From positions 100,936,001 through 101,000,000 of the forward strand of contig JAGIQG010000009.1 of NCBI GenBank assembly GCA_024679065.1: DNA of 64,000 nucleotides, read 5' to 3'. The DNA is from Sphyrna mokarran (lineage: Eukaryota). The first letter of the stretch is position 1, and every line of letters begins with the position of its first letter. The position numbers were made by a program, and so were the translations under genes. The notes beneath the pieces are model-generated. The model was not told the DNA's origin. It searched no databases and worked only from the letters and a program-made list of their open reading frames with translations. Positions 22,886-35,857 of this stretch are shown piece after piece.

Positions 22886-22912
22886 CTTCATCCTTTAGGC
22901 GCAGCAGTGCCT
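22886..22912 (-). CDS. 27-nt micro-exon (class B), (E)ALLRLKDE
   Basis: cctatttttcttacag|AGGCACTGCTGCGCCTAAAGGATGAAG|gtaaaa; phase 1-1. Confidence 0.87.
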
Positions 22913-23259
22913 CTGTAAGAAAAATAGGTGCTCATAGATCCTATGACAATAAAATCGTTTTGCACTATCACTTACACTGAGCAAATTAAATTTTCAAGAA
23001 TGCAAGCTGGCGCCTTTGTTCAGTAACTGGGAAAATAATTTCAATAACGATAAGGGTCAAGTGACCCTTTCGTTAAAAAAAGTAGAAAGACGACGTATGT
23101 TGCTCAGAATTAAAAGCGAAAAAATGTTATTTTCGAACAACGCATATCTTTCCATTTAATGGATCATTTGCATCTGGATGTTAGTAACGATACAACCTTT
23201 TAATTTTCTTTTCTTTTAGATGTGTACTTCACGTGAATTACACATAGGGACTTCAAAAC

Positions 23260-23580
23260 AGATGTTCTAATCCTGTGGGGGAACGTAGTTTGAAGATAAG
23301 TGGTATACATATTAGAACTAATGTGGCGGAGAACTGTTACCAAAAAAGAACAGCAAATCCGCAGAAACTGTTGCTACGGAACGTGTTTAAGCCCAAAGTG
23401 GTGCGTGATTTCAAAAGCAAATTAGTTGTAGCTCTTGGAGATAAAGGGATGATGGAATCTTCAGGGGAGCTTGGATTAGGATATTCCATTTGATGATCAG
23501 TCATGATCAAAATGAATGACAGAATGGTTCAGAATGGCGAATGGACAATTCCTGATTCTTTATTCTATGTTTCTTGTCTA
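23260..23580 (+). mobile_element. Degenerate CR1 3' end
   Basis: atcagtcatgatcaaaatgaatgacagaa...gaatggacaattcctgattctttattctatgtttct, a typical CR1 3' UTR and tail. Confidence 0.6.
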
Positions 23581-24668
23581 GATGTTCGAAAGACAGCGGT
23601 ACGGTCAATATCTAATGTATTTATATTTTTGAAACCTTTAAATTGAGCTAATTGCTATTGATGTTTTGTTCGTTTGGTGAAATTTAAAAATAGAAACTCA
23701 CAAAAAAGAAGTTGGAAACAAATATGTTTTTGCCAATGACTTTTGCCCAGGGACAAACCGGGTGGCAATGAAGAACAGGATAAAGAACAAATATAAGTGA
23801 CAATAAAACGCAGACAACTCAATTTCTGTAATAAGAAATCCTGCGAGCCTGCAGGGGAGTGAATTCATGGAATACATCGAGAGTTGAATTCGCAGTGAGT
23901 TTAGAATTCAAATTCTGCAATGTCCAGGTGGAAAGCAAGCTGAAGTAAAGTTTCTAATTCATTCTCTGAAACTCAACGGCATAAACATATTTGAAACTGA
24001 AGCACTCTAAGCAAATTTAATATATAGACAGCAGTATATCTTCACACTTGTATATTTCCAGGTTGTGGAGATAAAATAGGTGGCATGGTTTTGAAACGTT
24101 ATCTTGTCTCCTGGTTGAATTGTTCATTTTTTTTTCTAACGTGGTGTACATCACAATTATACTACATTTAATAAACGTTTATTTTCTTGTATCAAAAATA
24201 TACTTTCAGCATCTGGATAATTCGTTCAGCAGGTGACTACAGTTCCATAAACTGTATCGGCCATGCTCGTATCGACCAGAGAAACATTCACTCTGATTTA
24301 CATGCCGAATGTTAACAGGAAGGGGGCTTATATCGGCCTAAATTGGAAACTAGTCTGCAGCATATTGAGGACTGAAATAGGAAAAGTGACGTTAGAGGTC
24401 ACTAAAATCACCGAAGGACGCTAATGAAATGGGGTTCAGTTCCTCAGAAGGTCAATTAACAAAGGACCACGTGTTTCTATTTATTGTTAGAATTAACAGG
24501 ATCCAGAAATAGACTCGAGTGCATTGCAATAACTTTCACAGGTAAATTTATGTTCTTTACACGTTAAAGGTTAGAGATCGGAGAGCAGGAATTCTTTCTC
24601 CATCTGTAAGTCTTGGATAGTGCACCCAAAATAAATATATTTCTACTTCCGGGCGCGGTAAAAAAATG

Positions 24669-32569: not shown

Positions 32570-34480
32570 TTATTATCTTGACTCCACACTTTGTCTTCTG
32601 GTGGATTGTCCTCCCTCCTGCATCCGGGATTCCTCTGATGTCCTGTCTCATAATGATAGCTTCCAGTTTTCAGGGCCTCACTGCCTCCTGTTTATCATGG
32701 ATGCACAATCTCCCTATGACTCCATTCCAACTGGAATGGACTGAGAGCACTTCGCTTCTTCCTTGAAAAGAGGCATGAATAATTCCCCTTCTCTGCCTGG
32801 CTGAACACATCCATCTCTCAACCAAGCGTCTTTTAACTCATCCAACTCTCTCCAAATCAAAGATGTCGCAAATAGTATCCGCATGGGTCCTAGCTTTGCC
32901 TGTCTTTCTCATGCAGAGGTGGAACATTCCTTGTTCCAGGCCTACACTAGTCCCGTCCCACAACACATTTCCTGGTACATCAATGACTATATTTGCGCTG
33001 CTTCGTGGTCTTGTCAGGGCCTAGAAAAATTGATCAACTTCGCTTCCACTCTACTCCACCATCACTTTCACCTGGTCAATGTTAGGCACTTCTTTCCGTT
33101 TTTTTACGGCCGGGGGGGGGGGCGCTTTCTCTATCCATTTCTGGCAATAAACTACGAAACAATATCCACCAAAAGCCCACTGACCCTTACAGTTATTTAG
33201 ACTACAGCTCATTCCAGCACATTCCCTCATTTCATTCACCTCCCTCACAATTGTCTGTTGACGCCATTTTCCAAAGTTGTCATTCTAACATGTACTCACA
33301 TTTCCTCAACCATGGTTTTCTATCTACAGTTTTGACAAGAACAGCTTGCGTTCCATCTTCCATGCCACGAGGCTCACCCCCTCCCTTCCTTCCGTGGACG
33401 AAGGTAGATAACCCTTTTTTTCTCCCATTTCCAGAACACTAGTCTTTACATGCAAAGCATAATGCTCCGCTACTTCTGCCAACTTCAGCGTGATGCCACC
33501 ACCGAGCACATCTTTGCTTCACTACCACTTTCATCAGTCTGCGGAGATCACTCCCTCCGGTATAACCTATTCTACTCCTCCCCTGTACCTTACACCATTT
33601 CATCACCCATAGCGCCTTCCCACGGATTCACAGAATGTGTCACACCTGCCGTTTACTTTTATCAATCTTTCCATCCAAGATCCAAATCACTAATTGCAAG
33701 TTAAAACAGTGTTTCACTTGCACCTCTTTCAATTTTATGTACTGCATTCGCTGCTCCGATTGCGGTTTCCTCCATAGCGGAGAGACCAAATGCCGACTGT
33801 GTGATCGTATTGCTAAACACATTTGTTCTACTACAATCAGGACCCTGACCGTATTGTTCTTTGCCATTTTAACACGCAGCCCTATTTCCATGCATACATG
33901 TCTGTCCTTTCACTGTTGTAATTTGCTTAAGAAGCTTAACGCAAACTGCACAAACAACACCTTCTCTTGTGGTTAGGCATGTTACAAACTTCCGGACTTA
34001 ACATCGAACTCAACAAGTTCAGATGATTAACTCTACCCCACATCAACCTCTTTGTTGTAATTTTATTCATTTTTTTTCACGGTTCTCTACCATTTATTTA
34101 TTGTTTTTCTTCACTTTCCTTCTCCCCAAACCTTTCCCTTATTTCATCCCCTCTTTCATTATTTTTTCTTCCCCTTCGCTTACCCTTTCTCCCCCATCCC
34201 CCCACATCTTCATTTGCCCCAGCTTACCCTCTGGTTTCAGTTTATCCGCCGTATGGCCATTCATAACTATTATTCTCTCTATGGACTGCCATTAATAGCT
34301 GTTCCCCTTGTTTTTGTTTTAAATAACTATGGCTCATCTTTCCTTCCCACATGCAACAGTATAAATATTTCCCACTTTCTATGCCTTTTAGCTTCGACAG
34401 ACCATCAGAGATTCGAAACGTCAGCTCTTTTCTCTCGTTACAGATGCTGTCAGTTTTATTGAGATTTCCACTATTTTCCC
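32570..34480 (+). mobile_element. Degenerate Penelope-like retroelement (RT, GIY-YIG endonuclease and 3' terminal region)
   Basis: LLFIMDAQSPYDSIP, MGPSFACL...WYINDYI (YIDD-like) and FTCTSFNFMYCIRCSDCGFLHSGETKCRLCDRIAKH (GIY-YIG-like) appear in successive frameshifted ORFs. Confidence 0.88.
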
Positions 34481-35830
34481 ATTTGGTCGCCAGATCTTTT
34501 GAGATTTCGTTTTTGGAGCGTGCGTCTCACGAATTTCACTGTCCAGGATGTAAAGAGACAGGATGCACAATAGGATGCGGACCCAAAGGAAACGATTTCT
34601 TTCACTCGGAAGCCTAATGCCTCACAATAATTAGCAGCAAATTTGTCATGTTCGTGTCAAATCAAATAGGCTTGCATTTCAGATACGGTTTGAACATAAG
34701 CACGTCTAATTCCGATACGGCTGTCCACGTATATTAGTCATTGCCAAGAAACTTGACAAATATATGACAAATGGACTGAAGGCAATATTCAATAATGTTT
34801 GATTTGCTTCCCATGTGTGAACTCCGATTGCAACACTGTCGTATGTCTCAAAGAAGAAGACCAGCATCACTGAGATCAGGTAAGAGATTGCAAGGTAAGA
34901 TCTGAAGGAGTGAAGCAGCCAGGAAAACTGACAATTCGAAGTGATGCATACATTGATAGTGAAAACATGGATTGATTGCAACCAAACATAACACAAAGGA
35001 ATATGATTGCAACGCCCCAGGCAAGTTCTACTTTTCATTGCTTCACAGAATGTCCCCATGGCTGCGAGACCAACCTTAGGTTACTCAGCCAAATATCATG
35101 GGGAAAGTGCCGGCAAGCAGCCGAGTGTTGTAGGTGCTGTAGGTGCAAACAAGGTGTTGTTACAAAGGTTTGCAGTGCCGATTGACAGCAATGAAATTGC
35201 TGTAGATGTTTAAGTCACATTGCCTCGCGGCTTGAATGAAGATTTGTTGTAAATTAAGTTTCAAGGATTTTCTATGTTGCTTGGATCAAAAATTGGTTTG
35301 TACAGTCGAAGATGATTTAAGCGTTACATTTCTCTAAGGCAACGCTCCGAACGTTGACCACAAGAGGACGGATTGTATGCTGATAATTTTAAAATGATGG
35401 ATGAAGGCTGGGACAAGCAGAATTCTTTACATATTTGTTGCTGATGTTTTAGCGATTGTTGCCTTCCCATTAATTCGGACACTAATAACACTCCTCGCAA
35501 TCCAAATGTACTATAGGATGAATATTAGAAGGCAAGAACGGAGTTCCTCATTGCAAAATTTCCAGTTCTTGTTTAATGCGCATTTGCTATATGATTTCCC
35601 ATTTTGCTCAGCCATCAATCTAATCAATTGTGCATTATTTAACCCTAAGACCTAAAAGAATATGTTATATGCAGCAAATTACTTCTTTCTAATTCTGCCA
35701 ACGCCAGTTTGCTGTTTTCAATGTAAATAGTATTGGTATATCGTGAGCTCTACATGACAGAAAGTGCATTCGTCGAACCGACTTGCAGTCAATAATTGAA
35801 ATACTGGAAAACGCATCTTGGTTAACTTAC

Positions 35831-35857
35831 CTGTATCCTTTATAAGAAGTTGTCTCA
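35831..35857 (-). CDS. 27-nt micro-exon (class B), (M/V)RQLLIKDT
   Basis: tttcttgtcttctcaaacag|TGAGACAACTTCTTATAAAGGATACAG|gtaagt; consensus donor, KD motif. Confidence 0.85.

Follow-up and report, generated by a model that had tools for sequence, protein, structure and literature searches.

Symmetric coiled-coil microexons of Sphyrna mokarran and a probable elasmobranch gene family with divergent B30.2 domains

The intracellular part of the butyrophilins (BTN/BTNL) consists of heptads followed by a B30.2 domain, and the genes are linked with the MHC, the major histocompatibility complex; in chicken BG proteins a long coil is spread over many small exons, and the relevant sections of two accounts describe the BG genes as a tandem, same-strand cluster near the MHC and TRIM genes, with variation in length and copy number (PMC4046983, PMC8813856). 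The same sections present the chicken zipper protein as a soluble BG tail which regulates the actin-myosin interaction (PMC4046983, PMC8813856). Here we describe a stretch of 64,000 nucleotides of Sphyrna mokarran, referred to as the window, whose minus strand carries a chain of coiled-coil microexons. The window spans positions 100,936,001-101,000,000 of contig JAGIQG010000009.1, called C1548 below, in a genome of 2.77 Gb. We consider it probable that these are coding microexons of an elasmobranch multigene family, which builds coiled coils of great length from exon modules of 6-14 residues and normally adds a divergent B30.2 (PRY-SPRY) domain as their cap.

The likeness to the described systems is partial. 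Butyrophilins have few heptads together with immunoglobulin (Ig) and transmembrane (TM) parts, whereas the shark family has hundreds of coil residues and no Ig domain or supported TM segment was found; its exons are mainly of 27 and 36 nt, in genes of hundreds of kilobases. In BTN genes the heptads presumably occupy small exons of phase 1, with lengths of 21 and 27 nt. The order of a heptad region followed by B30.2 was found for the family and for the 3' gene of the cluster, not for the window's own series. Chicken BG exons encode 7, sometimes 8 residues, whereas 87 of the 105 exons catalogued here encode 9 or 12 and only two each encode 7 or 8, and whole multiples of the heptad occur only in the rare 21- and 42-nt classes. 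BG proteins have an IgV domain and a TM segment and lack B30.2, whereas eight B30.2 exons lie at the block ends of the family. Guinea-pig enterophilins, which we take to be a long leucine-zipper rod with a C-terminal B30.2 domain and without RING or Ig, would share the architecture of the catshark homologue described below. For enterophilin-1, SNX1 binding and a role in the surface level of EGFR are described in part of one account (PMC13749957). The enterophilins are likely an independent mammalian BTNL derivative, likened to the family by architecture only.

The TRIM proteins labelled 'zinc-binding protein A33-like' also combine a coiled coil with B30.2, and clusters of TRIM-type B30.2 exons flank the array on C1548. 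TRIM proteins of the A33/TRIM39-like kind, however, have a RING, a B-box and a TRIM-type B30.2, whereas the family has neither RING nor B-box and its B30.2 domains form a separate lineage. Over 1.06 Mb, a RING/B-box profile recovered its control at E 6e-7, and no other match fell below E 0.48. Because RING and B-box are lacking we do not file the family as TRIM, and because of the exon sizes and the B30.2 domain we do not file it as BG. Our searches of the open-access literature gave no paper on the family or on its exon structure.

Microexons of the window and their catshark homologue

Seven exons lie between 35857 and 22886, all on the minus strand, bounded by AG and GT and of phase 1-1, which means here that the last base of the preceding exon completes the first codon of each. 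In that order they measure 27, 36, 27, 36, 27, 36 and 27 nt (35831..35857, 31320..31355, 30425..30451, 28995..29030, 26951..26977, 25258..25293 and 22886..22912), the sixth being of a subtype with core residues at 5, 8 and 12. The alternation of the two lengths on which the original prediction was built was confirmed for these seven exons, and the residues it had quoted at positions 2, 9, 16, 23 and 30 and at 5, 12, 19 and 26 are right: between 31355 and 22886, a stretch of six exons, the heptads have IKLVLIMRL as their a column and LVKLQALVK as their d column, with the register unbroken over 63 residues. Likeness to composition-matched shuffles had been posed as a refuting test, and within both classes similarity exceeds the shuffles. 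The 36-nt exons of the window score 10.4 against -5.7±2.0 (n=6) and the 27-nt exons 9.6 against -0.9±1.4 (n=7), with none of 5000 shuffles reaching either value. The two higher-order likenesses that had been pointed out between exon pairs hold as well; none of 20000 shuffles reaches them and, among exon pairs of equal length, they fall within the top 2% and 5%.

The chain runs past both ends of the window. Candidate calling over 264 kb, with a generic splice model and a charge filter, gave 35 exons of 27 nt and 24 of 36 nt among 143 candidates on the minus strand, and five of each among 78 on the plus strand. An exon model was then applied to 664 kb; it was trained on minus-strand seeds, which makes its strand contrast optimistic, and scored 129 of 14,709 minus-strand candidates above 12 and none of 15,353 on the plus strand. 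The non-overlapping catalogue holds 105 microexons in 656 kb around the window, 44 of 36 nt, 43 of 27, six each of 30 and 18, two each of 21 and 24, and one each of 42 and 15 nt; the final base is G in 99 of them. Short linker exons rich in Pro, Gly and Ser, which separate the rod segments, are under-counted by the exon model. Genome-wide, tight exon patterns fall almost only in C1548:99.15-101.30 Mb (minus strand) and in C668:8.6-14.3 Mb on a second contig (both strands). All 24 matches of the pattern searches lie in these two clusters, as do 33 of the 97 matches of a looser search, the rest being scattered at about the control rate (64). A 27/36 chain of the same kind was found in a 100-kb sample of C668. 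On C1548 the farthest 5' microexon found is at 101.37 Mb. An all-against-all comparison of open frames gave transposon matches as the only shared long exons, and a protein-database search with a 12-column profile of the 44 36-nt exons matched none of 7999 candidates. The single match of a second profile search with 36-nt exons was rejected as an unrelated mollusc repeat aligned to flank residues.

The joining of such exons was read from a homologue. The terminal exon after the last microexon (99.109 Mb) encodes a SPRY domain (Pfam E 7e-8, over the cut-off). A B30.2 exon used as query gave three matches among 322 candidates and led to the catshark RefSeq protein XP_038671249.1 of 945 aa, 58% identical over the query, which bears the automatic label 'zinc-binding protein A33-like'. 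It has SPRY and coil only, without RING, B-box or Ig, and its coil has no TM-like stretch (maximum 19-residue hydropathy 0.53) and two sequons in 770 aa. Spliced alignment of this protein to C1548:99.24-99.08 Mb gave 45 segments and a score of 1146, compared with 90 on the other strand. We trimmed the final three rows, which lie inside B30.2, a weak row preceding them and a row of 12 nt. What remains is a gapless alignment to 40 exons, in which 236 of 344 residues are identical; at 35 of the 39 junctions the segments abut exactly.

The window series follows the same protein at a greater distance. Between 44672 and -3228, twelve exons match catshark slots 370-533 in the same order with a score of 218.7 (plus strand 4.0), whereas 40 shuffles of the slot order gave 134±13 and at best 174; farther on, the series can be followed as far as about slot 726, at -73 kb. 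The exons at 35831..35857, 31320..31355, 30425..30451, 26951..26977, 25258..25293 and 22886..22912 take slots 379, 388, 400, 418, 427 and 439, respectively. At 28995..29030 the catshark protein has a 9-residue slot at the place of the 36-nt exon, so the strict alternation among the seven exons is partly local. Across 21 slots paired by hand, the identity of the window series is 41% with catshark and 46% with the copy at 99.1-99.2 Mb, whereas those two are 72% identical to each other; the window therefore holds an old paralogous copy of this long module, predating the split from catshark. The 300-nt flanks of the paired window exons are at background identity (0.50-0.63 compared with 0.54±0.03), in keeping with the great age that had been proposed for the duplication.

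Such an old copy might be a decaying duplicate that is no longer translated, which we regard as very improbable. Expected slots were not found between 22361 and 10038 or between 8582 and 4148, and the only B30.2 exon downstream in the cluster has an in-frame stop. However, all window exons are open with AG and GT intact, and they are 41-46% identical to the paralogous slots while the flanks are at background. Conservation of exons beside flanks at background requires long-standing selection.

Exon lengths, core positions and cassettes

The catshark protein could be parsed continuously from residue 370 to 726 into 37 slots, two of them inferred from single-slot gaps: 21 of 27 nt, ten of 36, three of 24, two of 21 and one of 30. 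The 36-nt class has its hydrophobic core at fixed positions 2, 5, 9 and 12. The 27-nt slots are of at least two kinds, one with its core at position 4, found after a 36 in 9/9 cases and before a 36 in 7/7, and the other with its core at 2 and 5, mid-run among 27s in 5/5. Since the core is at fixed positions in each length class, combinations of exons write the periodicity of the coil, and since every exon is of phase 1-1, any exon can be gained, lost or skipped without a frameshift. A 36+27 pair makes 21 residues, or three heptads, and is a recurrent module; the commonest larger unit, 36+27+27+27, makes 39 residues, or five heptads plus a 4-residue stutter, a term used here as in the relevant part of PMC4786415. 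We are highly confident of this anatomy: symmetric exons, a length-coded core, and an array which grew by cassettes of 3, 4, about 16 or more exons.

The 36+27 pair had been taken as the building block of the rod, duplicated as such and skipped as a pair to hold the register. As a recurrent three-heptad module the pair stands: 36 is followed by 27 in nine of ten parsed cases (shuffle mean 5.7, p 0.016) and in 27 of 36 catalogue cases with introns below 6 kb, the register is intact over 63 residues of the seven exons, and the overall hydrophobic period of the catshark rod is 3.51. It does not stand as the unit of duplication, and a strict version of the pair model is improbable. A 27 is followed by a 36 in only 7 of 20 parsed cases (27 follows 27 in nine) and in 13 of 28 catalogue cases; the duplicated units have either 3-4 exons, making 31 or 39 aa, or some 16 exons, and those with intron homology have three exons and 31 residues. 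The residue spacings of successive 36-nt slots are 39, 36, 21, 20, 46, 39, 31, 38 and 39, of which one in nine is a multiple of 7, and this speaks against a register that needs paired skipping. Paired skipping is also not required, because any skip keeps the frame and the protein already holds stutters and stammers.

Alternation without extra exons was likewise contradicted at the level of the annotated homologous protein, where runs of 27-nt exons and exons of 18, 21, 24 and 30 nt break the pattern. In the window, 27-27 junctions at both edges of the seven exons (44672 to 35857 and 22912 to 22387) end the alternation. A probable 18-nt microexon at 28219..28236 on the minus strand, ending in the H-x-x-x-D motif of the slot expected there, would interrupt it within the seven; candidates of this kind number two on the minus strand and none on the plus strand of 764 kb. 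A possible 15-nt microexon at 28412..28426 on the same strand is uncertain, as its score of 8.5 compares with seven plus-strand candidates above 8 in 664 kb. The histidine of the H-x-x-x-D exon end recurs at a fixed position in one 27-nt type, in this genome and in catshark, and could possibly form a metal- or pH-sensitive layer of the core.

Growth by tandem duplication of multi-exon cassettes, as the original prediction had proposed, is seen directly at +81 to +140 kb (window coordinates), where six tandem 27+30+36 cassettes share intron sequence. Their exons are 78-89% identical and their 300-nt flanks 66-75%, compared with 54±3% for random pairs, and the three flank distance matrices are congruent (Mantel r 0.71-0.94, p 0.014-0.032). 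The 27+30+36 unit makes 31 residues with a period of 3.44, or four heptads plus a 3-residue stammer, one per repeat. Stammers are the most strained discontinuity in continuous coiled coils, according to the part of PMC4786415 that treats them. A conserved fourth exon of this cassette was sought in the six introns and not found. Elsewhere in the array, 36-nt exons of an upstream series (segments L051-L058 and L072-L073) often have Cys at core position 5 or 9 and alternate with 18-nt exons, 36+18+36+27 making 39 residues, equal to 36+27+27+27. At C668:14.278-14.285 Mb, a low-copy intronic segment forms tandem repeats, some copies of which have a 27-nt exon-like element.

B30.2 exons, gene extent and the MHC neighbourhood

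Eight related B30.2/SPRY exons rank first or nearly first in two genome searches: two on C1548, at 99.103 and 101.418 Mb, and six on C668, at 8.558, 11.338, 11.879, 11.926, 13.716 and 14.320 Mb. Each of the six on C668 lies where a same-strand run of motif matches ends on its 3' side. The exon at C1548:101.418 Mb is intact and lies upstream of the array. In an unrooted tree of 20 rows, which held no butyrophilin rows, the eight family exons and the catshark copy split from 11 TRIM-type rows at 100/100. The best solved-structure match of a family B30.2 exon was that of BTN3A1 (E 6e-26), followed by TRIM21. The same-strand cluster at C1548:99.1-101.4 Mb adjoins MHC class I and TRIM genes; all 53 class I matches lie at C1548:85.8-95.8 Mb, and the same contig carries, at 91-113 Mb, about a hundred TRIM-type B30.2 exons, which places the cluster in the extended MHC region. 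The C668 cluster is on a contig other than that of class I. The family itself, its B30.2 head and its MHC linkage go beyond the original prediction.

The window exons belong either to one transcription unit of 2.3 Mb, to arrays which share a terminal exon, or to a paralogue without B30.2. A single unit over the whole C1548 block (about 101.37-99.10 Mb), or alternative 5' arrays sharing one B30.2 exon, would make a rod of several thousand residues in many splice forms. The block is of a single strand throughout, it has only one family B30.2 exon, at its 3' end, and on C668 each of the six B30.2 exons ends a same-strand run, within one of which 30-kb exon-poor gaps occur. Clusters of database proteins with a long coil and PRY/SPRY, seen as look-alikes in the Atlas and treated as leads only, have 55-137 members of 1277-1802 aa with automatic names, one of them 'isoform X51'. 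However, the window series repeats catshark slots 370-726 in order and stops where B30.2 would come, like a tandem paralogue; the unread 1.4 Mb has three loose-motif matches compared with eight in the 664 kb read; and the sole full-length homologue found has 945 aa. We consider this extent rather unlikely. Unlikelier still, in our estimate, is its full elaboration, in which several hundred symmetric microexons of such a unit, or of arrays sharing one B30.2 exon, would let splicing set how long the rod is and how it supercoils locally (heptad, stutter or stammer). The product, several thousand residues long and tipped by B30.2, would then be an intracellular immune scaffold of cartilaginous fish, linked to the MHC and diversified combinatorially.

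A separate tandem paralogue without B30.2, perhaps membrane-anchored and comparable to a BG-like or tetherin-like coiled coil, is possible, if doubtful. No B30.2 exon follows the window series, and two hydrophobic TM-like candidate exons with good acceptors occur in the chain, at +243.6 kb and -139.4 kb. Chicken BG genes, which are tandem, same-strand and MHC-linked, end without B30.2 as far as the relevant sections go (PMC8813856, PMC4046983). On the other hand, about ten hydrophobic candidates of such a kind occur in 464 kb; the candidate at +243.6 kb has no paralogue in the genome and no protein-database match (0/20 candidates), and the end phase of the one at -139.4 kb brings a stop into the exon that follows. 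A TM segment before the heptads is absent from the catshark homologue, leaving these two unsupported exons of the genome as candidates, and no Ig motif was found. A crude pattern gave no Ig motif in the DNA read, and the catshark protein has no Ig domain (the start exon of the cluster was not found); no V-set candidate fell in either cluster among 150 scored of 1261. Two related candidates were rejected: a tetherin/PLVAP-like type II protein, raised by the core cysteines and a hydrophobic candidate exon, was set aside because the candidate exons are unsupported and the catshark homologue has no TM segment, and a C-type lectin stalk (CD23/CD209-like) because none of 45 Lectin_C matches lies in either cluster.

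Several observations weigh against a translated family whose rods end in B30.2. In the B30.2 exon at C1548:99.103 Mb (minus strand), a stop in frame falls about 21 codons short of where the catshark protein ends, and past this stop the frame still matches; the stop may be a null allele, a recent loss or an assembly error. In the 762 kb around the window there is no family B30.2 exon or remnant except that of the upstream gene. The genome-search matches include no family B30.2 exon at C1548:99.104-101.418 Mb, where 1.4 Mb are unread, and the genome searches likewise gave none within 1.8 Mb downstream of the window, where 1.4 Mb are unread by the exon model. Start exons and gene borders were sought in the cluster DNA and none was found, a CpG-rich spot at -101.7 kb being a repeat. 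XP_038671249.1, although made independently of our exon calls, is an automatic model from another species with a putative 5' end, and the joining of exons in the window is taken from this homologue. The pN/pS values of the three exons of the recent cassettes are 1.05, 0.28 and 0.68, from very few sites and non-independent samples, and protein-level selection is clear for only one of the three. Function and oligomer state would follow from analogy alone.

We still prefer the family of long coiled coils with, normally, a B30.2 cap. In it, exon lengths and core positions set the length and periodicity of the rod, and tandem cassette duplication has multiplied the exons. The product may be a parallel coiled-coil oligomer of the cytosol, whose rod would act as spacer or scaffold and whose B30.2 head would bind a ligand. 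By analogy it may work as BG tails and the intracellular halves of butyrophilins do, or like an enterophilin, with no membrane anchor; its task may be innate defence or the tethering of membrane or cytoskeleton; membership of the butyrophilins is unsupported, as no Ig or TM was found. The number of cassettes could tune the length and flexibility of the rod, and so, probably, could the splicing of individual exons or entire cassettes, without strict confinement to 36+27 pairs. We would give these proposals on product, role and length tuning, taken together, an even chance.

About 8 Mb of the genome thus hold a gene family which exon finders and domain searches largely miss and which has a TRIM name in RefSeq. 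It would extend the butyrophilin/BG design of MHC-linked coil exons with B30.2 to cartilaginous fish, with no detected ectodomain, and it bears on the role of BG-type tails and of free B30.2 domains. The array also offers a natural library of exons whose length encodes the periodicity of the coiled coil, the six tandem 31-residue stammer repeats among them, and a direct test case for microexon skipping limited by protein register besides reading frame.

Other exons, repeats and neighbours

Further microexons of the window lie on the minus strand on both sides of the seven. Upstream are a 27-nt phase 1-1 exon of B type with core position 4 (60263..60289), a 36-nt phase 1-1 exon of A type (59848..59883) and a 27-nt exon of the second type, with core positions 2 and 5 (44646..44672). 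The last of these has A as its final base, which gives an ATG codon across the junction with the following exon, and the homologous slot shows the same. Downstream are a 27-nt exon with an A-like start (22361..22387, catshark slot 448), a 27-nt exon at 10012..10038 (slot 475), a 36-nt exon at 8582..8617, a 36-nt exon at 4113..4148 (slot 504) and a 27-nt exon at 166..192 (slot 516).

The introns of the window hold LINE reverse-transcriptase fragments at 951-1872 and 18884-19801, two copies 87-92% alike, which we take to be of CR1 type. A tandem duplication of about 290 nt and one of 79 nt occur in introns at 29923-30414, 55943-56453 and 57415-57566. Farther along C1548, a V-set cluster with about 28 kb spacing lies at 81.1-81.85 Mb and eight tandem single-exon C-type lectin domains at 97.45-97.51 Mb. 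In segment L080, the minus strand at 3430-3570 carries the CpG-island first exon of a neighbour gene, with a hydrophobic N-terminus, and this exon is followed at 2200-3210 by a long minisatellite with units of about 37 nt.

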